Source: a virus (Duplodnaviria > Caudoviricetes). Taken from it: DNA of 29,890 nt. The stretch's first letter is position 1, and each line of letters begins with the position of its first letter. This document shows, in pieces, positions 4,616 through 25,409 of this stretch. The stretch is taken from positions 1-29,890 of the IMG/VR virus record IMGVR_UViG_3300031259_000038; one strand, written 5' to 3'. The position numbers were made by a program, and so were the translations under genes. Under the pieces are notes generated by a model. That model did not search any database and had not been told where the DNA came from. It worked only from the letters and a program-made list of their open reading frames with translations.

Positions 4616-5080
4616 ATGTTCGGACTCCCTTTGAAGACGGTCGGCATCGTGCTGGGCGCTTTGGCGCTCCTTGCCGCGCTGGTCTATGGCGTGGGCCACT
4701 TGCTCAGCGAAGAGCGCAAGGCCGGGGCGGCGGTTGTGGCGGCTCAGTGGCAGGCCGCAAACGCCCAACAGCAGGCAACACTGGCCAAGGTCCAGGGTAG
4801 CCTTAGCGACGGTCTGGCCTCCGTAGATACGCACTTGCAAAGCCGGTTGGCCGGGCTTACGCAGGCCGGGACCAGCACCAACACCACTCTAGTGAAGGAG
4901 ATACACGATGCTCCGCAGATTTCCAGTTCTGATTGTGCTTTGTCTGACGGCGTGTGGCGCCCCCTTGCCGCCGCCCGCCAGCTTTCCGCACCTTCCGGAC
5001 CTCAAACCGTCGGAAGCGGACCCGTGCCCACCGGCACCGCCGCTCCTGGACAAGCTGGAGGCGACGCTGGCCCTCACTGA
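4616..5080 (+). CDS. Rz: Inner-membrane spanin (Rz-like)
   Basis: N-terminal TM helix followed by an Ala/Gln-rich coiled segment. Follows the endolysin and overlaps a lipoprotein gene. Confidence 0.7.
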   Translation: MFGLPLKTVGIVLGALALLAALVYGVGHLLSEERKAGAAVVAAQWQAANAQQQATLAKVQGSLSDGLASVDTHLQSRLAGLTQAGTSTNTTLVKEIHDAPQISSSDCALSDGVWRPLAAARQLSAPSGPQTVGSGPVPTGTAAPGQAGGDAGPH

Positions 5081-5201
5081 CGGTCAGCTTTCCGTCCTCT
5101 ACGCCCAATGTCAAGCCAAGCATCAGGCGGTAGTCAAGGCATACCGCGATGCTCAATCAATACTGGACAATGCCAATGGCCCCCAATCCGCTCACCGCTG
5201 A
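4908..5201 (+). CDS. Rz1: Outer-membrane lipoprotein spanin (Rz1-like)
   Basis: AAGGAG RBS. Signal peptide MLRRFPVLIVLCLTA-C with lipobox, Pro-rich mature part, overlaps Rz in the +1 frame. Confidence 0.75.
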   Translation: MLRRFPVLIVLCLTACGAPLPPPASFPHLPDLKPSEADPCPPAPPLLDKLEATLALTDGQLSVLYAQCQAKHQAVVKAYRDAQSILDNANGPQSAHR

Positions 5202-5520
5202 CCCTACGGTCGATACCCTCGCACAAATGGCCCTGATGCGAATCGAAGCACAACTCACCGATATGGCTAAGTCCGTGGCTGATGTTCGTGAGCGCGTTGC
5301 ACGCATGGAAACCAATGCGGTCTCGGTCGAACTTCAGCACTTGAAGGATGACAACGCGCGCCTATGGGAGCGTGTCAATCAATTGGAGGCAGATCGCCAT
5401 GCGCGCGATGGCTCCGACCGCACGGCGCAGAAATGGGGCGAGTGGATTCACCGCCTCGCCCCATGGGCTTTCGCCGTTGCGCTGGCCGTGTGGAATTACA
5501 CGACCAATATCAAGAAGTAG
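5170..5520 (+). CDS. Coiled-coil protein with C-terminal membrane anchor (XhlA-like/second holin or antiholin candidate)
   Basis: Heptad-like region followed by LAPWAFAVALAVWNY. Last gene of the + strand operon. Start uncertain (5149/5170/5176). Confidence 0.45.
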   Translation: MPMAPNPLTADPTVDTLAQMALMRIEAQLTDMAKSVADVRERVARMETNAVSVELQHLKDDNARLWERVNQLEADRHARDGSDRTAQKWGEWIHRLAPWAFAVALAVWNYTTNIKK

Positions 5521-5935
5521 TATCGGCAATCAAAGTCTGAATGATGAGGGTCGCTACCACGTAGCGGCCCTCAAGTATTGCCAGCAGGGCATCGCGGTCA
5601 GGTCGGTCGAACTGCTTGATGAAGTTATGAATGTTTTCGTGCCCTCGATGCTGCTTAGGATCGGGGCGCACGTTGCGCTCATCAGCTTTGCGAATGTAGT
5701 GCAGAGCCTTCTGCAAATCCTGCACGCCATTCTTGCTGCGCCACCGGCTGACATATTTCGTGGCGTTGCCAATCAGATAGTGCAGATACTCATCACATAC
5801 GAAGTCCCAGTGCTGGTACTCCGCTTCCTTGTAGTGCTTGCCGCCGATCTGGAAATCATTGGCCCCCGACGGCGTGCCAGTCGGCCTTGAAGTATTCGTA
5901 GAACTTGTGGGCTCTGCGTGCGATTTGGTTTCCAT
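5510..5935 (-). CDS. DUF3310 protein (T7 gp1.7-related putative nucleotide kinase)
   Basis: ANDFQIGGKHY, QHWD, GNATKYVSRWRSKNGVQDLQKALHYI match the DUF3310 pattern. Start uncertain; it overlaps the HD gene by 80 nt. Confidence 0.8.
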   Translation of the reverse strand: METKSHAEPTSSTNTSRPTGTPSGANDFQIGGKHYKEAEYQHWDFVCDEYLHYLIGNATKYVSRWRSKNGVQDLQKALHYIRKADERNVRPDPKQHRGHENIHNFIKQFDRPDRDALLAILEGRYVVATLIIQTLIADTTS

Positions 5936-6389
5936 CAGCGGGTATCCCTTCCAGCAATTGCTCAACGTAAGATTGAAAGTTGAAGTACGGCTCCCAGATC
6001 AACTGGTTGCCCATGGCACGCTCCTGCACGCAGAAGCGCATTCCGTCGAGTGCGTCCGATACCTTCAGCACCCACTCTTCTGCCTTGGTCAGTATCTCCG
6101 GGCTGATGCCCGCGTCTTTCATGTGCGCCTCCTCATGCTCCTGGAACAGTTCGCGTATCCGCATGGCCCGCTTGGCCGGAGCAGGCATGTCTCCCAGCTT
6201 GTGTTCAGCAATGTCATGCTGAAGCCCGGCGCGCAATAGCGCGGCGCTGGCAAGCGGGTCCAGCGCCATGATCATCATGCACACGTTGAAGCTGTGGTGG
6301 GCCACCGTGTCCGGCATGATGGTCGGAATAGTGTGGTACCGCTTGACGTTACCGCCCTTGATGGCGAAAGTGTAAGCTGGCTGAGTCAT
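5856..6389 (-). CDS. HD-domain deoxynucleotide hydrolase (YfbR/DatZ-like)
   Basis: VKRYHT, TVAHHS, LQHDIAE..LGDMPAPAK, KVSDALD. ATGA coupling to the upstream gene with AGGAGG RBS. Confidence 0.85.
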   Translation of the reverse strand: MTQPAYTFAIKGGNVKRYHTIPTIMPDTVAHHSFNVCMMIMALDPLASAALLRAGLQHDIAEHKLGDMPAPAKRAMRIRELFQEHEEAHMKDAGISPEILTKAEEWVLKVSDALDGMRFCVQERAMGNQLIWEPYFNFQSYVEQLLEGIPADGNQIARRAHKFYEYFKADWHAVGGQ

Positions 6390-7405
6390 GCTGCCTCCTT
6401 CTTGGCAAGGCGCCGCTCCAGCCATTGCTGGCAGGCCAGCCGCCAGTCGCACAGGTGCGGCATGGGCTCCAGGCTGGCCAGCGCCGACATATAGTCGCCG
6501 CGCTTGTGGTGACGCCACGCGGCCAACATACGATCCGCCAGATGTAGCGCCAAGTGCGTCGGCCGGTAGCGGTGCCCGCCCGGCGCAGCCGCTTGGAGCC
6601 AGTGCGGGAGTTCCTCGTCAAACAACTCCATGTCGTCGGGGCTGAACAGGTAGACGGGCGCGACCACGCCGCTCTCGTACGCATCGGTCTCGAAAAGATC
6701 CATGATGACGTCCCGCATCGAGTGCTTGAGAATACCATCGTAGATATGGTAGTTCCAGCTGAACTGAGTAAGCGTGCCCATGAGTACGCCGATCCGCGCC
6801 GCGATGTATTCCTGCAGAATACTGAAGTGGACTGCGTTGGCGCCGTGCGCGCCCCAGAGCGCATCGTTGCTCCGGCACGTGACCGCCATGTTCAGCAGGC
6901 CGTTACGGATGGTGAAGAAGCACTGAGTATTGCACGGAACATCGGCGCTGCCAAGACGCACGCGCCCCATGTCTTTGAAGCCGTCCCACATGGCCAGCAC
7001 GGCACGGCGGCTCTCCGGGTGCAAGCGTAGTTCTTCGACCACCGCATCAATCTGGTCGTAGCCGAAGTAGTCGCGCCACCGGAAGCCATACGCGGCGGGC
7101 TGAGTACGCCCGCCGTCATCGCTGTAGGACCGCATCTGCTTGTTGAATTGCGCCAGCCACTCCAGATCGTTACGCCCGCCCAGCATCCAGAGCGCCTCGA
7201 AGTAATGAAAGAAAGGATTGGCGTCCCGCTTGGGGCTGAACAGCACGCGGCGCACCGGCGACTGATATGTTGTGATCATGGGGCCGTTAAGCACCGTGAC
7301 GCCGCCGTTGCGGCTGGCCTCGTTGGAGGTTGACATGGGGCTGGACAAAATGTCAAGCCCAAGGGCCAGCGCCTCTCCGACGCTGCCCGCTGAAATTGTG
7401 TGCAT
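6386..7405 (-). CDS. dUMP hydroxymethylase (thymidylate synthase superfamily)
   Basis: RDANPFFH..EALWML, AYGFRWR, DQI, SRRAVLAMWD, catalytic DVPCN, RSND..WGAHGANAVHFS (Asn at the dUMP-specificity position), NYHIY. Resembles YuA/M6-type enzymes. Alternative GTG start at 7408. Confidence 0.85.
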   Translation of the reverse strand: MHTISAGSVGEALALGLDILSSPMSTSNEASRNGGVTVLNGPMITTYQSPVRRVLFSPKRDANPFFHYFEALWMLGGRNDLEWLAQFNKQMRSYSDDGGRTQPAAYGFRWRDYFGYDQIDAVVEELRLHPESRRAVLAMWDGFKDMGRVRLGSADVPCNTQCFFTIRNGLLNMAVTCRSNDALWGAHGANAVHFSILQEYIAARIGVLMGTLTQFSWNYHIYDGILKHSMRDVIMDLFETDAYESGVVAPVYLFSPDDMELFDEELPHWLQAAAPGGHRYRPTHLALHLADRMLAAWRHHKRGDYMSALASLEPMPHLCDWRLACQQWLERRLAKKEAA

Positions 7406-8256
7406 CACTTCTTCTCCTGTGGTTTATACATCTGCTTCGGCCTGCCCTGATCCAGCCGTGCCCGCTCATGCTTGTCAAACTCGCAAAGGCAGTTCTGGAT
7501 ATCGTGCGCTGTCAACGGCTCTTCCCACTTTAGGCGCAGGTTAACCGCATCCCTTAGCTTACTCAGAGTTTGCCGGAAGACAAGTTCTTTCCAAGGTGCG
7601 TTGACATTTTGAGCCATAATGCGGTTGAGGCCGCGCCGACTGCCCGGCCCTGAGCAAGCGAAGGTGCTGAAGTCCTCCCACGTCCACGGCATGGGCGCGT
7701 ACTTCAGGTCAGCCAATACCTGCCCGGCCATGAAGCTGCCAAGACCTTGAAGGCTGCTCAGGGCTATGTGGGCGTTGGCAAGCTGCCCAACCCATATCAG
7801 GCGGTGCATTTCTTTGCGCTTGTCCCACGCGGGCTGGAGTACCACATCAACGACATAATCGACCTTGTCCATGGCGCGGCCATTGGTCGACACGATGTAG
7901 GCTGCGTTGAAGTTCTTGCTGCCTGCCCATGCGCGCTCGTGCAGTACCTTCTTCATCTTGTTGGGCTTGAATGGCAGAATGCACTTCGCATCAAGCAGCG
8001 CCTGAAGAGTTTCCTCGTTGTTAAAGAGGCGCGCCACTACGAGTGGGAACCAAAGCTGGAAGTCGTAGCCCCATTCTTTGAAGAAGTGAGTGTGAATCCA
8101 CTTCGTTACGCGGTCATCGTTGCGCCGCACGTTACAGAAGCGGAACTGCTCGATGATCGGATCCGGCTTGGATCGGCTGACCCAGCGCCCGGCCTCTTTG
8201 GCTAGGCGGTGAGCCTCGCGAGCGCGGATAAACCGCACAAGATCTTCGCTACGCAT
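7405..8256 (-). CDS. aGPT-Pplase1 family / 5-hmdU DNA kinase helical-domain protein
   Basis: FIRAREAHR, DPIIEQFRFCNVRRNDDRVT, HhH-like GLGSFMAGQVLADL, GPGSRRGL, DIQNCLCEFDK. Adjacent to the dUMP hydroxymethylase. Confidence 0.85.
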   Translation of the reverse strand: MRSEDLVRFIRAREAHRLAKEAGRWVSRSKPDPIIEQFRFCNVRRNDDRVTKWIHTHFFKEWGYDFQLWFPLVVARLFNNEETLQALLDAKCILPFKPNKMKKVLHERAWAGSKNFNAAYIVSTNGRAMDKVDYVVDVVLQPAWDKRKEMHRLIWVGQLANAHIALSSLQGLGSFMAGQVLADLKYAPMPWTWEDFSTFACSGPGSRRGLNRIMAQNVNAPWKELVFRQTLSKLRDAVNLRLKWEEPLTAHDIQNCLCEFDKHERARLDQGRPKQMYKPQEKK

Positions 8257-8881
8257 TGCGAAGCTTCTCCGCTGCCTTGAGAAGCCGAATGGCCTCAGCC
8301 TTGGGGCTCTTGTCGTGCTTCACAAGATGGGTGGGGTGCGGAAACGGCTGCTCGCCGATCTTGGCTTTCTGGACACCCTGTATTTTCCTGAGGAGCGACG
8401 TGCAACTATCGAAGGTCGGCCGCATGGTGCGCTCGGGGTCGAAGTCCTCCATGCCTTTGCCAGCCGCCGCGCGACGAAGGCCGACACGCTCAACGCAAGT
8501 CTCAAACGGCGTATCCATGAAAGCATAAATCCACTTGCCTCTCTTGGCGCTTAGATGAAGTTCGCTGATGGCTCCGATGGCTCCGTACGTCTTGCCGGTA
8601 ATCAGCCCCTCGAAGAATACAATGCGGTCGCCCTTGCAGGCCCACTGGATCAGAGCCATGCGCTGAAGCTTGTCGCTGATGCTGTCCATGCCGCCGCAGG
8701 TGGTCACGTAGGGGCCAAGCACCAGAACCTCCGTCAAGCCCCACCGGCCGATATAGTAGTCGGGGTTCTTTTTGGTCTTACGACTGCAGCGAGGTACGCC
8801 ATTGATCTCCGCGAGCAGCGCGCGGGCCACCGTGGTCTTGCCGGAGCCATTGCAGCCCCCAAGTTTGATTACGCTGAACAT
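8249..8881 (-). CDS. P-loop nucleotide kinase of thymidine-hypermodification clusters
   Basis: N-terminal Walker A GGCNGSGKTT, LGPY...CGGMD, FFEGL, DTPFETCVERV..RR lid motif. AAGGAGG RBS. Confidence 0.8.
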   Translation of the reverse strand: MFSVIKLGGCNGSGKTTVARALLAEINGVPRCSRKTKKNPDYYIGRWGLTEVLVLGPYVTTCGGMDSISDKLQRMALIQWACKGDRIVFFEGLITGKTYGAIGAISELHLSAKRGKWIYAFMDTPFETCVERVGLRRAAAGKGMEDFDPERTMRPTFDSCTSLLRKIQGVQKAKIGEQPFPHPTHLVKHDKSPKAEAIRLLKAAEKLRNA

Positions 8882-8898: not shown

Positions 8899-8929
8899 TC
8901 TTACCCCGCCGGATCAGGGCGGGGTAAGA
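8899..8929 (-). terminator. 12-bp hairpin between the basic-protein gene and the kinase gene (weak terminator or processing/stability hairpin)
   Basis: TCTTACCCCGCC-N7-GGCGGGGTAAGA. On the minus strand it is followed by only TTT and then the kinase RBS. Confidence 0.55.
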
Positions 8930-8952: not shown

Positions 8953-9606
8953 TTAGGTCAGTTCGATGTGACCCGACTCGACCAGCTTCGAAAGATACTT
9001 GGTCTTACCGCCCGCTTCCTTGTAGTCGCCGACGGTCTTGGCGCCCTTGAGCGCGTCGAACGAAGCAGCGCGGTTGGAGCCCTCCCGGAAGGGGTTCTCC
9101 TTGTTGACGATCTTGATCTTGCGCTTGTCGCTTTCCGCGCTGTCGGCGGAGCGGGCTTCGCGCGCCTTGGCGAGCGCCTCGGGGTTGCCCTTGCCCTTGG
9201 CAGGGGTCTTGGCGGGTGCGGCTTCCGCGCCCTTGGTCTTCAGCTTGGTGGCCATGATACTCAGCTCCTCTTCAGTAAACGGGGACCATTCCCCAATCCA
9301 TTGGACCGCAAGCGACGTGGCTCCGTGTGCCAACATGGATTCTTTTATACCCGAGATTAGAGAATGTAAAGAGGTTTCTTCCTCTATACGCGGGTAATTC
9401 CTCAAGTGCCAATCCAGCACCACACAATCTGTTACTCCCACTTGCACGCCGGGCACGTAGGCCGGATTGAGCGCCACGCCGAACACGCCTTGGAAGGTCC
9501 GGCCCAGCACAAGAATGCGCCTGCCCATTAGGCTATACGGATCGCGGAGCCTGTAGGGCTCAAAGGCGGAAGGCGCGGGTGCCGGGGCGGTTGCCTTGCG
9601 GGCCAT
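8953..9606 (-). CDS. Basic putative DNA-binding protein; long form 217 aa, probable nested 100-aa form from ATG 9255
   Basis: TAATG coupling to the helicase stop. Internal GAGGAG RBS before ATG 9255. Lys/Ala-rich tail plus a C-terminal domain paralogous to 24864..25409. Confidence 0.6.
   Translation of the reverse strand: MARKATAPAPAPSAFEPYRLRDPYSLMGRRILVLGRTFQGVFGVALNPAYVPGVQVGVTDCVVLDWHLRNYPRIEEETSLHSLISGIKESMLAHGATSLAVQWIGEWSPFTEEELSIMATKLKTKGAEAAPAKTPAKGKGNPEALAKAREARSADSAESDKRKIKIVNKENPFREGSNRAASFDALKGAKTVGDYKEAGGKTKYLSKLVESGHIELT
9340..9370 (-). promoter_or_regulatory. Putative internal promoter
   Basis: AT-rich island inside a GC-rich ORF: TTTACA...GGGTATAAAAGAA, about 85 nt upstream of ATG 9255. 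Confidence 0.4.
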
Positions 9607-11304: not shown

Positions 11305-11604
11305 TTACAGTTGTTCCACGCGATACAGGTTTTCCTGTATGGCATCGACTATCGTGTCCATGCGGCGCACGGCCTCCAGGATTTCGCCCATGGAACCGCT
11401 TACATAGTGGTCACAGTAGTCCTTCTGCGGGCGCGGGTATTCAGGCGTTTGGCCCACCAGCCGGTCCGCCAAGTTTTGAAGGCGAGTAGCTGTATCCGAC
11501 ATGCGCTCCAATGTCTGAATAGCCTCCTTGTTGATGCGCTCCGTGACGGTGGCGTCACGCGCGCTAAGATTCACTGTCTGCACGTTGTTCGCCCCACCCT
11601 TCAC
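11305..11604 (-). CDS. Hypothetical protein
   Basis: GTGA coupling with GAGGAG RBS; fills the operon gap. Confidence 0.6.
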   Translation of the reverse strand: MKGGANNVQTVNLSARDATVTERINKEAIQTLERMSDTATRLQNLADRLVGQTPEYPRPQKDYCDHYVSGSMGEILEAVRRMDTIVDAIQENLYRVEQL

Positions 11605-11870
11605 GAGGTCGGCTCTTCGGTTGCCGCAGGGGCGGGGCCGGGCACTTCCGTGGTGTTGGCCACGTGGATTCCGAGCCAGTATATCGCCTCACGCAGCTTC
11701 GTGCGCGCCTGACTGGCCTCGTGGCTGACGAAGTCCTCCACTTCATTGGCGGCGGCATTGAGGCGGTCGAGCAGCGAGGTCGGAGTATCCACGACCGTCT
11801 GGCCCGCTTCCTTGGCAAGAGCTGCCGCGTCGTCGGCCAGCTTCTGCGCGTCTTCCGTGATACCGTTCAT
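11601..11870 (-). CDS. Hypothetical acidic protein
   Basis: TAAGGA RBS; in-operon position. Confidence 0.65.
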   Translation of the reverse strand: MNGITEDAQKLADDAAALAKEAGQTVVDTPTSLLDRLNAAANEVEDFVSHEASQARTKLREAIYWLGIHVANTTEVPGPAPAATEEPTS

Positions 11871-15556: not shown

Positions 15557-16444
15557 CTACTTGTTGCGGCCCTGACGCCGTGGCGGAGCCTTGGCAGGTG
15601 CCGACGCGCGGCCTTTCAGCTTGGTATTGGACGCGGTCGTCTTGACCGCTTCCTCCTCGTCGGCTACGAACGGGCGGTACGGGAAGTCGATGGTTTCGTA
15701 CTCGGTCTTGTACCGGCCCAGCAGCGTGGGAATAAGTTCACGCTCCACCGGCTCGATCAGTTCAAAGTTGACCTTGAACTGGGACTTGGGGTCCGGCGTC
15801 AGATAGACGCGAGTGTAGACTGCGAACAGCGGCTTGCGAAGCTGCTCCGCCACATCGCGCACGTAGGCATCAAAGCCCTTGCCGCTCATCACCGGAATTT
15901 TCAAGAACGCCGCCTCGGCCGTGCGGAAGTGGTCCGGGTCGTTGATCAGCTCCAGTTCAAAGCCCCCATGCCGCCCCGCGCTCTTATACGTGCCCGCCGG
16001 AATGCACGCCAGTCGGCGCCGGTTGGCGCAGGCTTTGCCCCGGCCCTTGGCAGCCGAGCCGAACTCGTTCTGCGGGCACCCCTTGCAGGTATCGTTCTGC
16101 GCGGTGAAGGTGTCGGGGTGCTCCTCCATGCTGGGGTGCGGCGCCATCTCGTCCTTCTCGTCCGGGTCCTTGCAGAACGCGAAACAGGTGGGCGGCGTGC
16201 GGTTGTCGGCGTCGAAGGACTCCTCGTAGTAGAGGTTTTCGAGACACCATGCCGCGATGATAACGCACATCTGATTGCCCGGCATCGGCGTGTCGTCATA
16301 TTGCAGCACGCCCGCGCGAGTGCTGAAGAAGCGGCCTCCGCCGCCGTCGCTGGTCAGTGCCGTGGTGGCCCCGGCAAGGCGCGCCAGTTCCTCGTCGTAG
16401 TTGGCGATATCGGTGCCAGTCGTTGCGGTGGGTTTACGTGCCAT
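15557..16444 (-). CDS. Conserved replication-module protein, probable ssDNA-binding protein with Cys (Zn) insert
   Basis: PTCFA, CKGCPQNEFGSA..GRGKAC.N.RRLA. Strong AAGGAG RBS; directly upstream of polA. The SSB role is an inference from position. Confidence 0.55.
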   Translation of the reverse strand: MARKPTATTGTDIANYDEELARLAGATTALTSDGGGGRFFSTRAGVLQYDDTPMPGNQMCVIIAAWCLENLYYEESFDADNRTPPTCFAFCKDPDEKDEMAPHPSMEEHPDTFTAQNDTCKGCPQNEFGSAAKGRGKACANRRRLACIPAGTYKSAGRHGGFELELINDPDHFRTAEAAFLKIPVMSGKGFDAYVRDVAEQLRKPLFAVYTRVYLTPDPKSQFKVNFELIEPVERELIPTLLGRYKTEYETIDFPYRPFVADEEEAVKTTASNTKLKGRASAPAKAPPRRQGRNK

Positions 16445-21279: not shown

Positions 21280-21421
21280 CGAATTCTCCTGTTTCCATCA
21301 TGCGCAGTTTCTTGCGCCATTGCAGTTCAATCTCTTGTGGGCTCCGTCGCTTGCCCACATCAGCTAAGAGCTCCACGGCTTTGACAGCGGCGCGCGTCGG
21401 TTGCTTCTTCACAGCGCCCAT
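21272..21421 (-). CDS. Small hypothetical protein (49 aa; not in ORF track)
   Basis: MGAVKKQPTRAAVKAVELLADVGKRRSPQEIELQWRKKLRMMETGEFDG fills the gap and overlaps both neighbours. Alternative GTG at 21412. Confidence 0.5.
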   Translation of the reverse strand: MGAVKKQPTRAAVKAVELLADVGKRRSPQEIELQWRKKLRMMETGEFDG

Positions 21422-21882
21422 CCCGGAACTGGCCGACCAGTCCAGATCGGCTCTCGCTTGTCGGTGGGCCAGCGTGCCAGCAGATACGCGCGATAGGCGT
21501 TGGTGATCGGCAGGTGGCTGAAGTCAAACCCATGGCCGCGCGCGCTGTTCTGGAACTCCAGCGGCTCCAGCGGTGAGCGGAAGTGGCGGCGCATGGCGCG
21601 CAGCACCGGCTGGCACGCGTGGGTTCGGCCAGTCCAGGACGTGTAGACGTCGCACAGCGCCAGCCCATAGCGCAAGGTCCACCGGGCATGGCTGGCACGG
21701 CGTCCGGCCCACAGAGTAACCGGGTGTCGCCTATGCGTGACGCGGTAAAACCCCGTCACACCGCGCTCGTCAAGCACGGCGGACAGAATCTGCGTGGCCT
21801 CCAGCGCAATCTTGATGACACGCTTATCGTCAAGATCACGTGCCGCAATCAGCGGATCTGTGTGAGTTACGAACAAGTTCAT
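21409..21882 (-). CDS. Pyrimidine-dimer DNA glycosylase/endonuclease V-like protein
   Basis: MNLF...DP..AA..LDDKRVIK.ALE..Q.LS, Y..TH..HP...W, AYR.Y, W..R..P.W family signature. Confidence 0.75.
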   Translation of the reverse strand: MNLFVTHTDPLIAARDLDDKRVIKIALEATQILSAVLDERGVTGFYRVTHRRHPVTLWAGRRASHARWTLRYGLALCDVYTSWTGRTHACQPVLRAMRRHFRSPLEPLEFQNSARGHGFDFSHLPITNAYRAYLLARWPTDKREPIWTGRPVPGWAL

Positions 21883-22055
21883 GCTGGTCCCTTTATCCTT
21901 GCGGCCTCGCGCTTGGCGCGGTCGCTTGCTTCGCGCTTGCTGGGAAGCGCAGACATAACCCAAGGCTCCTCCCCAATCAGCACGACGGGGAGCCAGCCTT
22001 CGGCGCAGCGCCTGACTCTATAAGTCACGCGCCGCGCCTTGTGCGGCTTAGACAT
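21879..22055 (-). CDS. Small basic hypothetical protein (58 aa; not in ORF track)
   Basis: GGAGGAG RBS; MSKPHKARRVTYRVRR...RIKGPA; ATGA coupling to the next gene. Confidence 0.55.
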   Translation of the reverse strand: MSKPHKARRVTYRVRRCAEGWLPVVLIGEEPWVMSALPSKREASDRAKREAARIKGPA

Positions 22056-22905
22056 ACTCCTCCTCCAGTTCCGCCAGCCGTTCGCCGCCAGCCTTGACCG
22101 AAGCCTCGTTGATTTGCTTCATGGCAAGATCAAGCGCGGCGGCCATCGTGGTGCATTTTGTGAACTGCTGACCTACGCCCTGAATATAGAGCGCGGTGCG
22201 GTCCGGCACAAGGCTGAACCCGGCTTCGGTGGTTCCCGGATAACCGTATCCGCCGTGAACCATGTCCCGCTCGGTGCGCTCGATGACAGCGAAGAGCAGG
22301 CGGCGGAACATCGCCGGGTGCGCGAGGCTGAAAGCAATCGCGGCCATGTCCAGCGGCTGGTCGGCTTGCTTGATGCTCCACGTGAATGTGAACTTGCGCT
22401 TGAGGCCATCGATCGTGATGGCCCCGTAAAGTTCAACGCGGATGCCGCGTGACTCCAGCCGATCGACCAGCACGGCCATCGCCGAGCCGTAGTTCGCCAT
22501 CTCGTTGGCGCTTACGCCAGCGGATGCTACGACGTTGACGACCAGCGTCACGGCGGGCTTCACGACACGCTCCTTGACGCGGCGGACCATGTTGAAAGGA
22601 TCACCCGTAACATAGCGACCGATGTCGGCGTGGTCTCCCATGACTCCGTACGCCTTGACCGGCTTCAGGTAGGTCGGGTCGTTGCTTTGCAGCGCCTCCA
22701 GCTTGCGAACACCCTCGTCCCAACCATCGCGAGCGTACTGCATCGCCTTAGCGTAGTCGGTGTTCAAGTCCCACGACTGATTGGCAGGGTTGCTGACGGA
22801 CGCCTTGGTCGGCCAAGTCGGCCGCGTGTCGGCCAGCCATTGCACGATGTCGCGCAGGTTGTCGGCGTGGCCAAGCCACGACTTGTCTGTGATTTCTATG
22901 ATCAC
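22048..22905 (-). CDS. vWA-like partner of the AAA+ ATPase
   Basis: GTGA coupling to the ATPase gene; beta strand VTLVVNVVASAG (degenerate MIDAS position), LESRGIRVEL, HPAMFRR, GYGYP. Confidence 0.6.
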   Translation of the reverse strand: MIIEITDKSWLGHADNLRDIVQWLADTRPTWPTKASVSNPANQSWDLNTDYAKAMQYARDGWDEGVRKLEALQSNDPTYLKPVKAYGVMGDHADIGRYVTGDPFNMVRRVKERVVKPAVTLVVNVVASAGVSANEMANYGSAMAVLVDRLESRGIRVELYGAITIDGLKRKFTFTWSIKQADQPLDMAAIAFSLAHPAMFRRLLFAVIERTERDMVHGGYGYPGTTEAGFSLVPDRTALYIQGVGQQFTKCTTMAAALDLAMKQINEASVKAGGERLAELEEEYV

Positions 22906-23942
22906 CGCACCTTCTCCATCACCAGCTTGGCCTGAACACGCGACCGGTTCTGGTCATCCAGACCTTTCCAGACCACCGCCTCCTCAACCTCGGCCTGAGC
23001 CCAACCGGCGGCGAGAAGCTTCGCGCCATTTATACTTGCGCGTGGCGAAACGATGTGGCGGACGCCAGTGCTGACTATCGCTTTGCGCACCGACTGAACA
23101 TGCCGCGTCCAGTCAGCGTTGCCAGCGAGGGCCAGTTCCAGCGACTCATCGTAATCGATGTCGATCATGGTGAACCTGTCCAGCGTCGCAGCGTCAAGCT
23201 GATTGCGGCCGACGTACTGGCGGTCAGCGCCGCGCCCATAGGTGTTCCCAGCCGCAATGGCATGGAAGTCCTTGTGCGCGACCACGACAGCGTCAGGGAA
23301 GTCACAGCGTCCGTTGGCCAGCGCCGCGTTAAAAGCGGTGAGTGCGTCGGGGTCGCTTGCGTCAACCTCGTCAAAGAGGAAGATGCCGCCCTTTTCGTAA
23401 GCCTCGCGGAACGGCGTCCGCACGATGGCCCCATTGGCAGTGACGAAGCCGAGAAGCTTGAAGTCGCTGGTCACGCGGCTGGCCATATAGAAGTTCAGGT
23501 GCATCACCTTGGCGACCTGCTCGGCCAGCGTGGTCTTGCCCGAGCCCGCCGGACCTACGAGCATGGGGCTCACTCCAGCGACAACCGCCTGCACGACAGC
23601 CTCCAGCTTGTGATGGCCGACGTCCACCTTGATTTCCGGCATGGTGCCGACCTTGACAGCGGCGACGCGGCTGGCCAGCGCAAGGTTCTCCTCCACCAGC
23701 GCGGGGACCAGCGTCATGAACTGGCGGGCAATCAGGCCAATGGCCCGGTCAACCGCCTTGTCAGCGGCGCCATCGTCGATGCCGGGCTTGGTCGGCACTC
23801 TGGCCTCCGGGCATTCTCCGGGCAGGTGATAGGTGATCCAGCGTCCGGTGTTCTCGTCCTTGACGATGCGACCCGCACCCTCTTCCACGCGGGCGCCGCA
23901 ATCGCGGCAGACGCCCGGATATGTGTTTGCACGAATTCCCAT
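22902..23942 (-). CDS. MoxR/CobS/CbbQ-type AAA+ ATPase with N-terminal Zn-ribbon
   Basis: GPAGSGKT, FLFDEVD, AAGNT.G.G...YVGRN.LD.ATLDRF, SPRA. N-terminal CRDC...H...C. Confidence 0.9.
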   Translation of the reverse strand: MGIRANTYPGVCRDCGARVEEGAGRIVKDENTGRWITYHLPGECPEARVPTKPGIDDGAADKAVDRAIGLIARQFMTLVPALVEENLALASRVAAVKVGTMPEIKVDVGHHKLEAVVQAVVAGVSPMLVGPAGSGKTTLAEQVAKVMHLNFYMASRVTSDFKLLGFVTANGAIVRTPFREAYEKGGIFLFDEVDASDPDALTAFNAALANGRCDFPDAVVVAHKDFHAIAAGNTYGRGADRQYVGRNQLDAATLDRFTMIDIDYDESLELALAGNADWTRHVQSVRKAIVSTGVRHIVSPRASINGAKLLAAGWAQAEVEEAVVWKGLDDQNRSRVQAKLVMEKVR

Positions 23943-24863: not shown

Positions 24864-25409
24864 TTAGGCCAGCGTGATCACCTTGGCGGCGACCCAGCGC
24901 GGCAGATACTTTGCCTTGCCGCCCTTGGCGAGGTACTCGGTGACCGTCTTGCTGGTCGTGCAGGCGGTCCAGCTATCGTGGCGCGCCGAACCTTCCCGGC
25001 CGAACGTGAACTTCTTGTCCACGATGGTGATCTTCCGGGTGTCTCCGGCCTTCGGTGCAGCGCGCTCGGCGCGGGCGGTGACTTTCGCCGCCTTGGTCGC
25101 TTGCGCCTTGTCGGTCTTCGTGGTCGCCTTGGCAGGCGAAGCGGCCGACTTGGCGTCCTTGACAGCCTTCTGCGAATGCGGGGCGTCGGTGGACTTCAGG
25201 CCGCGCGCCAGTCCAGGCGTCGCCGCCTGCGTCGGATGCTTCTTGGCCTTCGCGGCTTCCAGTTCAGCAACCGACTTGGCGCCAGTTTCCTTGCCGATGT
25301 CGGCCAGTTCGCGCTTGATCTTGGCCATGCGCTGCGCCTTCGGCGTTTCCAGGTACGTGGACTTCGCTTCGGTAGCGGCGACTGCAGTGTTTGCGTTTGA
25401 CTTTGCCAT
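24864..25409 (-). CDS. Lys/Ala-rich (histone H1-like) protein with C-terminal domain paralogous to 8953..9255
   Basis: GGAG RBS; low-complexity K/A/T region; RKITIVDK...REGSAR...KTVTEY...GGKAKYL. Confidence 0.75.
   Translation of the reverse strand: MAKSNANTAVAATEAKSTYLETPKAQRMAKIKRELADIGKETGAKSVAELEAAKAKKHPTQAATPGLARGLKSTDAPHSQKAVKDAKSAASPAKATTKTDKAQATKAAKVTARAERAAPKAGDTRKITIVDKKFTFGREGSARHDSWTACTTSKTVTEYLAKGGKAKYLPRWVAAKVITLA

Follow-up and report, generated by a model that had tools for sequence, protein, structure and literature searches.

A thymidine-modification cassette with a DNA kinase and no detectable transferase in an uncultured peat podovirus, and 5-phosphomethyl-dU as its possible final base

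An uncultured phage from peat carries a compact cassette that pairs a homolog of the 5-hmdU DNA kinases with a clade-1 aGPT-PPlase and, across the complete genome, has no detectable clade-2 transferase. As a tentative reading, to which we give slightly less than an even chance, we propose that 5-phosphomethyl-dU persists at TC in the virion DNA and that clade 1 likely converts the remaining hmU to T. The phage DNA would probably be replicated with hydroxymethyluracil replacing thymine: the thymidylate-synthase homolog would make hmdUMP, an HD protein would drain competing nucleotides, and the phage PolA would incorporate hmdU. The P-loop kinase, by analogy with its family, would then phosphorylate hmdU in the DNA, likely at TC sites, and 5-phosphomethyl-dU would be left as the final anti-restriction base, because no transferase is detectable in the complete genome. 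At the weakest step of this scheme, uncapped hmU would most likely be turned into ordinary thymine by clade 1, via Cys258 and some hydride donor.

The cassette and its complete genome

The window, that is, the whole stretch of DNA analysed, is a 29.9-kb fragment. The missing 13.5 kb was supplied by record G001 (44,073 bp, CheckV 100%), whose ends overlap by ~690 bp to give a complete 43.4-kb genome; it is 99.6-99.8% identical to the window, with 0 differences in the five cassette genes. The recognisable genes of the missing part encode P22-like portal, scaffold, coat, head-closure and ejection proteins, and several of the 23 ORFs searched there have no family match. No RNA holder of this DNA was among those listed. 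Gene positions, overlaps and Pfam families all bear out the preliminary description of five tightly coupled genes, which lie on the minus strand and overlap or abut their neighbours. The features are:

8953..9606 (-): basic Ala/Lys/Pro-rich protein; conserved upstream neighbour marking the swappable gene slot
8899..8929 (-): 12-bp perfect hairpin, then TTT and the kinase Shine-Dalgarno; 5' edge of the slot, from sequence
8249..8881 (-): kinase, 210 aa
8834..8857 (-): Walker A motif GCNGSGKT, kinase residues 9-16
7405..8256 (-): clade-1 aGPT-PPlase, 283 aa
7483..7485 (-): Cys258 in QNCLC258E, aligned with the clade-2 catalytic Cys247 (ETVLC)
6386..7408 (-): thymidylate-synthase homolog, 340 aa
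5856..6389 (-): HD protein, 177 aa
5510..5935 (-): DUF3310 protein, 141 aa

The product of 6386..7408 belongs to the thymidylate-synthase family (Pfam), is 42% identical to M6 gp58 and, like the dUMP hydroxymethylases of SPO1 and SP8 (34% identity), has the catalytic PC and the RSND..GAN motif as in SP8; it scores below every NCBIfam thymidylate synthase cut-off. Asn versus Asp at the specificity position tells dUMP from dCMP hydroxymethylases. With its catalytic Cys, an Asn at the dUMP-specificity position and closest similarity to phage hydroxymethylases, the protein appears to be a dUMP hydroxymethylase-type homolog with hmdUMP as its predicted product. The HD protein (Pfam YfbR-like, E 2e-9; 34% identity to M6 gp59) resembles 5'-deoxynucleotidases and is predicted to deplete dTMP or dUMP; its true start is likely 6389, with a Shine-Dalgarno sequence and an ATGA overlap. 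That of the DUF3310 protein (Pfam E 5e-10; 46% identity to M6 gp61 over 63 aa) is likely 5935.

The kinase, clade-1, dUMP hydroxymethylase, HD and DUF3310-like genes follow the same order in M6 (gp54, 55, 58, 59, 61), one of the Pseudomonas phages, with YuA and PaMx11, whose thymidine hypermodification clusters have been described (Lee 2018, PMC5889632; Lee 2021, PMC8989533). Unlike those phages, the present one is a P22-like podovirus with a footprint at TC rather than TG, and it has no recognised clade-2 transferase, PLP, radical SAM, flavin, acetyltransferase or gp56-like gene and no dCMP deaminase. Rhodoferax phage P26218, likewise a podovirus without a dCMP deaminase, shares PolA, SNF2 helicase, kinase, TS, HD and DUF3310-like genes in the same layout but is the mirror case, with clade 2 and without clade 1; on the reading proposed here its virions would be expected to retain hmU.

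The kinase and the clade-1 protein

Which of the two proteins is the DNA kinase had been left in doubt by mixed database naming. The P-loop protein matches HMUDK_HMUD1 (PF18748; 29.5 bits, cut-off 27), is 29% identical to M6 gp54 (E 2e-9), and has the Walker A, GxY..GGxD and EG motifs in common with M6 gp54 and SP10 gp186N, both of which have been shown to phosphorylate hmdU in DNA. Residues G9 and N11-K15 are invariant in 32 homologs, and the AF2 model (pLDDT 90 for clade 1, 94 here) has an NMP-kinase-like fold. By profile, motifs and fold, the P-loop gene is a 5-hmdU DNA kinase (5-HMUDK) homolog, with predicted activity on hmU in DNA. The clade-1 protein was ruled out as the kinase by its HhH fold and its lack of a P-loop, and the Pfam name 'helical domain' is consistent with the fusion of kinase and clade 1 in SP10 gp186. 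No relative of the kinase alignment was found in GTDB genomes, which therefore gave no clue to the host.

The protein encoded by 7405..8256 is assigned to aGPT-PPlase clade 1 by its profile (Pfam HMUDK_hel, = aGPT-Pplase1, PF18723; E 2e-36), an HhH-superfamily fold and a conserved Cys-Glu; it is 29% identical to M6 gp55. Its model matches the transferase PUGT (8z2m: VIA Z 9.9, rmsd 4.6, 227 aligned), although PUGT, OGG and EndoIII folds are tied (Z 9.4-10.5). A sequence search for solved structures matching clade 1 found none, and Foldseek returned nothing at E<=0.001. None of 25 homologs collected without filtering for the motif departs from C258 or E259; we rely on these, as the invariance of QNCLCE in a second, pattern-searched set of loci is partly built in. 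The match of Cys258 to Cys247 comes from a weak profile alignment (hhalign probability 1%). The protein has no ADDT (clade-2, PF18724) match and reads Q-N-C-L-C in place of E-T-x-x-C, so that Gln-Asn occupy the positions of the Glu-Thr that two studies describe as essential metal ligands of clade-2 transferases (PMC11472151, PMC13458397). No report of a clade-1 activity was found in the literature searched, a scope that excluded most subscription journals and bioRxiv supplements.

The missing transferase and a swappable gene slot

Of the components of an M6/ViI/PhiW-14-type pathway, the dUMP hydroxymethylase and the DNA kinase are present, whereas an encoded clade-2 transferase was not found in three sequence searches of the complete G001, which very divergent forms could escape. 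A Pfam ADDT search gave no match; tblastn with four clade-2 proteins gave only 30-aa scraps (best E 0.05-0.08); and our own 10-sequence clade-2 profile, run against 643 six-frame segments, gave at best a 42-aa off-frame scrap (E 0.048). Pfam can miss divergent transferases, since that of 15599 scores below the cut-off and that of Montesquieu was missed. Among 46 window ORFs and the 23 from the missing part, no match was found to radical SAM, PLP, flavin, GNAT, glycosyltransferase, TET or dCMP deaminase families. The absence of a transferase, tailoring enzyme and dCMP deaminase first noted for the window thus extends, by the full-genome profile search that had been proposed (aGPT-Pplase2, rSAM, PLP, GNAT, glycosyltransferase), to the whole of G001, and a kinase without a transferase recurs in divergent relatives: no clade-2 transferase was found in G009 (99% complete) or G031 (92%). 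The missing deaminase does not set this phage apart, because none of 15 near-complete relatives has one, those bearing a transferase included.

Relatives were surveyed by PolA rather than by cassette genes, and 36 groups carry the hydroxymethylase. Of these, 30 have a glycosyltransferase, 4 the kinase alone, 1 kinase plus transferase and 1 neither. Clade 1 is present in 34 of the 36 (29 with glycosyltransferase, 4 with kinase alone, 1 with kinase and transferase). The kinase and the glycosyltransferase never occur together (0/36 groups; Fisher p 1.6e-5, kinship ignored), and the kinase occupies the slot filled by the DNA glycosyltransferase in relatives, including the closest ones (PolA 70-74%). 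In relatives, the gene just before the kinase, glycosyltransferase or transferase encodes a homolog of the 8953..9606 protein, which has no match in a Pfam search. On a quick clade-1 tree, in which 4 of the 17 kinase-only rows (L051, L060, L103, L107) have an incomplete upstream region, the kinase-only proteins are scattered: their 17 rows need 14 changes, a number as low in 122 of 500 shuffles, and some kinase and glycosyltransferase types pair as sisters with strong support. No residue separates the clade-1 proteins of the two types (best p 5e-4 over 2132 tests). By gene content, clade 1 is a nearly constant, kinase-independent core gene. The same core without clade 2 is known from genomes of HTVC023P-type pelagiphages, as a module of TS, aGPT-PPlase1 and 5'-deoxynucleotidase (+ glucosyltransferase; Wittmers 2022, PMC9599517), although there it is joined by a glycosyltransferase and here by the kinase. 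Phage phiRSL1 also carries clade 1, and no kinase was seen close to it.

Since the kinase is never beside a glycosyltransferase and uses the same slot, it likely caps the hydroxymethyl group as the last step; the swap is observed, and its equivalence to a sugar cap would follow by analogy. A broader proposition is possible but doubtful: that a widespread group of 42-48 kb podoviruses packages 5-phosphomethyl-dU at TC, swappable with a sugar cap, and that clade 1 is an hmU-to-thymine enzyme acting in DNA. If true, 5-phosphomethyl-dU as a final virion base would be a negatively charged, one-enzyme anti-restriction mark; in the literature found it occurs only as an intermediate or in vitro product, with no report of it in virions within the search scope given above for clade 1.

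Restriction footprint and competing readings

G001 avoids 6-bp palindromes, those containing TC/GA excepted (p 0.0004, best of 10 classes), a test blind to whether the T in TC or the A in GA is involved. At p<0.05, 4/5 kinase-only genomes tolerate TC, G013 being the exception, against 1/10 cassette-less relatives. The tolerance extends to 5/7 glycosyltransferase relatives and, as these are the closest by PolA, common descent or a common host may account for the footprint, which was not seen in hypermodified SP10. The clade-1 carriers M6, Pam3, G045 and G053 avoid TC sites (O/E 0.04-0.39), so that carrying clade 1 is not by itself enough to protect TC. Among controls, M6, PhiW-14 and SH-Ab 15599 tolerate TG, and SP8, with unmodified hmU, shows no site tolerance. 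TG sites are tolerated in none of the 5 kinase-only genomes, though the M6 kinase prefers TG; according to PMC7653180, kinase treatment alone protects hmU DNA from many enzymes with TG or TC sites. TC tolerance was not reproduced at 5-bp sites (GANTC 0.66 and TCNGA 0.70, both depleted), a test dropped as uninformative because the positive controls failed too, and kinase-only and glycosyltransferase genomes could not be told apart by dinucleotide odds ratios (TG p 0.79). For M6 and SH-Ab 15599, whose preference for TG is known, the palindrome footprint does recover it; in uncultured phages, such footprints may predict the sequence context of a modification.

Of the outcomes first suggested, phosphorylated hmdU kept as the end product remains the best reading in view of a kinase without a transferase genome-wide, recurring in relatives; the suggestion needed correction on naming, on the deaminase and on precedent. 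In its favour, the virions of M6, ViI, PhiW-14 and SP10, all of them clade-1 phages, contain T and no hmU, whereas SP8, without clade 1 or clade 2, keeps 100% hmU. Against it, P26218-like phages and G062 manage without clade 1, extra negative charge should impede packaging, and no source in the literature searched shows clade 1 making thymine. SP10 also counts against it: this Bacillus phage has kinase and clade 1 with no detectable clade 2, which gives the combination a precedent, and makes alpha-glutamylthymidine. It differs in fusing the two genes, in having the clade-1 motif EGWCCE rather than QNCLCE, and in having a second kinase and, adjacent to the fused gene, the 896-aa gp185, of which Pfam detects no counterpart here.

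The SP10 product favours the main, though unlikely, alternative, in which clade 1 is itself the transferase, displacing the phosphate via Cys258 and attaching a host amine, amino acid or thiol. The result would be a hypermodified thymine of a new kind, and SP10 may use clade 1 in this way. Its fold family and Cys position match a proven transferase, its gene overlaps that of the kinase by 8 bases (the two are fused in SP10), and a bulky base would also account for the TC footprint. This role as installer, raised in the preliminary description, loses weight because the kinase-less glycosyltransferase phages (29 groups) carry an unaltered clade 1; the Glu-Thr metal ligands are replaced, and SP10 has another candidate in gp185, whose N-terminus is weakly TS-like (E 0.009, small search). 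Moreover, M6 gp55 was dispensable for glycyl-T, and the Fig. S20 legend names only gp46, and not the clade-1 gp50, as yielding product together with the kinase.

We consider it improbable that the phosphate is transient, with clade 1 reducing phosphorylated hmU to thymine, so that virions would hold plain T or T + hmU and only replicating DNA would be protected. A clade-2 enzyme with borohydride yields thymidine from the phosphorylated base, according to PMC8989533, every characterised clade-1 phage packages T, and many sites continue to be avoided in G001, among them TG sites protected by the M6 kinase. Its DNA was moreover assembled from ordinary metagenomes. The independence of clade 1 from the kinase in most relatives argues against this, as does the TC tolerance of divergent kinase-only genomes.

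Completion by an unrecognised phage gene or host enzyme seems quite improbable: the ORFs without a family and the divergent clade-2 proteins that escape Pfam leave room for one, but relatives with a transferase have its gene in or beside the cassette, and among the unassigned early ORFs just one, 15557-16444, is as large as a transferase gene; it resembles Pam3_Gp34-like clusters, belongs to the core genes of glycosyltransferase relatives as well, and gave no alignment with clade 2. It is very improbable that the P-loop protein acts on free nucleotides, as an hmdUMP kinase, and that virions simply hold hmU or T. Its fold search returns NMP and small-molecule kinases, its identity to M6 gp54 is low and a Pfam search of window ORFs found no other dNMP kinase, but its HMUDK match and motifs tell against this, as do the 30 glycosyltransferase groups that need hmdUTP yet lack this kinase.

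The kinase-only cassette is the simplest setting in which to study the role of clade-1 aGPT-PPlases, and how hypermodifying phages get ordinary thymine from hmU DNA. At the edge of its slot, the hairpin at 8899..8929 lies in a 72-nt intergenic stretch with an RNAfold energy of -31.8 kcal/mol, a value without a shuffle control, and is a possible attenuator or processing site.

A modification cassette in a complete phage genome

The window is part of the genome of a P22-like podovirus that encodes a family A polymerase. Peat metagenomes account for all three sequencing runs that contain at least half of its sampled words, and one of these runs may be its source. Five minus-strand genes run from 8881 to 5510, each abutting or overlapping the next. 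The tight coupling reported in the preliminary description was confirmed, with each product assigned to a Pfam family and matched to a phage M6 protein.

Cassette genes and their matches to phage M6
8249-8881, minus strand, 5-hydroxymethyldeoxyuridine (hmdU) DNA kinase homolog, 29% to M6 gp54
7405-8256, minus strand, clade-1 aGPT-PPlase (Pfam HMUDK_hel), 29% to M6 gp55
6386-7408, minus strand, thymidylate-synthase homolog (hydroxymethylase), 42% to M6 gp58
5856-6389, minus strand, HD nucleotidase, 34% to M6 gp59
5510-5935, minus strand, DUF3310, 46% to M6 gp61

The same description recognized no clade-2 amino acid:DNA transferase, a claim that the window alone was insufficient to support. The window was completed with G001, a 44,073 bp IMG/VR record (CheckV 100%, end overlap of ~690 bp) that is 99.6-99.8% identical to it, with 0 differences in the cassette genes. 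The additional 13.5 kb encodes portal, scaffold, coat, head-closure and ejection genes together with family-less ORFs. Across G001, Pfam ADDT gave no match, tblastn with four clade-2 proteins returned only scraps, and a 10-sequence profile searched against 643 six-frame segments gave a best E of 0.048, to a 42-aa off-frame piece. The claim thus held across the complete genome, within a sensitivity that very divergent forms may escape: Pfam scored the 15599 transferase below cut-off and missed that of Montesquieu. A dCMP deaminase is likewise absent, but this does not distinguish the phage and is ordinary, since 15/15 near-complete relatives and phage P26218 also lack one. No DNA methyltransferase gene was recognized in G001.

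Several other features of the window were observed. A perfect 12-bp hairpin (8899-8929) lies between the gene for a basic protein and the ribosome-binding site of the kinase. Two basic Ala/Lys-rich proteins (8953-9606 and 24864-25409), possibly paralogous DNA-binding proteins, appear by eye to have an alike C-terminal segment. Further genes include a pyrimidine-dimer glycosylase-like gene (21409-21963, Pfam Pyr_excise), a possible anti-defence protein with a weak, below-cut-off Acb2/Tad1 hairpin match (11601-11870), and a CobS-like AAA ATPase adjoining DUF7192 (22048-23942).

A variable gene beside clade 1

A cut-off of E<=0.001 gave 2067 homologs of the clade-1 protein, and many of these lie on contigs of 42-48 kb. 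Among the best 80 of 393 loci, fetched with the clade-1 alignment, its neighbour varied between glycosyltransferase types, kinase alone, and transferase plus kinase; the closest relatives carried a TAGT glycosyltransferase. Some loci contained other GT-B-like genes (one group by motif only), and L012:7008-7991 holds an AGT-like gene resembling T4-type alpha-glucosyltransferase clusters; with L024:8730-10001 and L071:383-1345 it represents three further glycosyltransferase-like families. The glycosyltransferase often comes with a radical SAM-SPASM gene (L014:11062-12030, L015:10846-11829, L029, L030, L055, L066), a pairing that suggests tailored sugars on hydroxymethyluracil (hmU).

A second survey, selected by PolA against selection bias, found 72 loci, of which 70 new ones were scored. 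Hydroxymethylase occurred in 41 loci (36 groups), with clade 1 in 34/36; these 34 comprised 29 groups with glycosyltransferase, 4 with kinase alone and 1 with kinase plus transferase. The two groups without clade 1 had, respectively, a glycosyltransferase and neither gene. Kinase and glycosyltransferase co-occurred in 0 groups (p 1.6e-5, kinship ignored). When 64 clade-1 proteins were placed on a quick tree, the 17 kinase-only rows called for 14 changes of that label, and no residue distinguished them from 36 glycosyltransferase-linked rows. Clade 1 therefore tracks the hydroxymethylase, not the kinase. ADDT was absent genome-wide from kinase-only G009 (99% complete) and G031 (92%), and the fetched stretches of L105, L106, L108 and L113, with kinase and clade 1, contained no transferase. 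The kinase-only cassette is real and recurrent in relatives.

Other arrangements were also seen. In L033, L035 and L065, clade 1 occurs with a methyltransferase (Pfam-recognized in L033 and L065) and a distant kinase homolog, the set lying ~3 kb away from the thymidylate-synthase gene. Two related loci of the kinase-only type (L026:8755-9417, L107:172-618) have an Nmad2-like gene ahead of the kinase. L002:9773-13265 (P26218) and L094:8067-11903 (Manatee Spring podovirus) carry transferase and kinase without clade 1, as shown for P26218; both phages are predicted to keep hmU. The cultured Microbacterium phage Golden (L091:1353-2823 and 4944-5750; gp55, gp54, gp47) has Ploopntkinase3 beside clade 1, no ADDT, and tolerates both TC and TG palindromes; because its divergent thymidylate-synthase homolog reads RSMDAVWGYRAD, it may use a different system with a dCMP-type enzyme.

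Palindrome footprints

Restriction sites are lost from phages unless modification protects them. Observed and expected counts were compared for the 64 six-base palindromes, using 60 kb from each large phage, 34-47 kb for most genomes and 20 kb for G010. Among controls, M6 tolerated TG sites (O/E 0.99) and avoided TC (0.04), PhiW-14 tolerated both, and SH-Ab 15599 tolerated TG, in agreement with contexts in the available text of PMC6449724 and PMC13458397. SP8 gave no footprint; nor did SP10, although hypermodified, and the test thus missed it.

G001 strongly avoids palindromes except those containing TC/GA (O/E 0.87 versus 0.46-0.47; p 0.0004, best of 10 classes). TC tolerance (p<0.05) was found in 4/5 kinase-only, 5/7 glycosyltransferase, 2/6 kinase-plus-transferase and 1/10 cassette-less genomes; the corresponding TG counts were 0/5, 4/7, 5/6 and 0/10. 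The kinase-only genome of locus L026 lacked the TC footprint, and M6, Pam3, G045 and G053 avoid TC despite having clade 1. Five-bp sites did not repeat the signal (GANTC 0.66, TCNGA 0.70), and controls failed likewise. Descent from a glycosyltransferase ancestor or a shared host may account for the signal, which fits T in TC and the opposite A equally.

A possible phosphorylated end product

The reading we favour, tentatively and at somewhat below even chances, is that hmdU would enter DNA during replication, the kinase would cap it at TC, and nothing would displace the phosphate, leaving 5-phosphomethyl-dU in virions. Such a cap could be beneficial, since many restriction enzymes with TG and TC sites are already blocked when DNA is treated with the kinase only (PMC7653180, available text). 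Clade 1 would most likely act as a putative enzyme converting remaining hmU to T, because M6, ViI, PhiW-14 and SP10 have clade 1 and package T without hmU, and 15599, also with clade 1, packages dT plus its own modified base, whereas SP8 lacks clade 1 and keeps hmU. This correlation is small, and one paper, in its accessible part, allows residual hmU.

The pathway resembles the first half of that of M6 and differs in that no clade-2 transferase is detectable in the phage. As far as the accessible portions go, pelagiphages have been described with a core that lacks clade 2 and comes with a glucosyltransferase (PMC9599517), and RP13 as having clade 1 but no kinase (PMC13697223). The literature searched, which did not cover Iyer 2013, yielded no report of virion 5-phosphomethyl-dU or clade-1 activity.

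Alternatively, clade 1 could itself be the transferase, which we consider unlikely. In its favour, SP10, whose kinase and clade 1 are fused into one protein and in which clade 2 is undetected, produces glutamyl-T (PMC5889632, in part), but most clade-1 relatives are kinase-less, and a Fig. S20 legend, from a partly available source, credits product with kinase to gp46 only, not clade-1 gp50. The 7405-8256 model has an HhH-superfamily fold that matches OGG and EndoIII as well as it does the PaMx11 transferase (Z 9.9, rmsd 4.6, 227 aligned). In a weak profile alignment, its QNCLC258E lies opposite clade-2 ETVLC247K, keeping the Cys and placing Gln-Asn at the Glu-Thr metal ligands, reported essential in the available text of PMC13458397 and PMC11472151. 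Adjoining the SP10 fusion, gp185 (L117:6711-9401, 896 aa) weakly resembles thymidylate synthase in its N-terminal part, PC motif included (E 0.009, small search), and is, from sequence, a candidate glutamate transferase of SP10.

That the phosphate is transient, ending as T, seems rather improbable, and completion of the pathway by an unrecognized finisher more so. It is very improbable that the P-loop protein is instead a nucleotide kinase. In characterised phages, P-loop proteins phosphorylate hmU in DNA, the SP10 kinase domain suffices alone, clade 2 is the transferase and M6 gp55 is dispensable (PMC8989533, available text). Earlier doubt over which protein is the DNA kinase was settled for 8249-8881 by motifs common to M6 gp54 and SP10 gp186N and by its predicted NMP-kinase-like fold.
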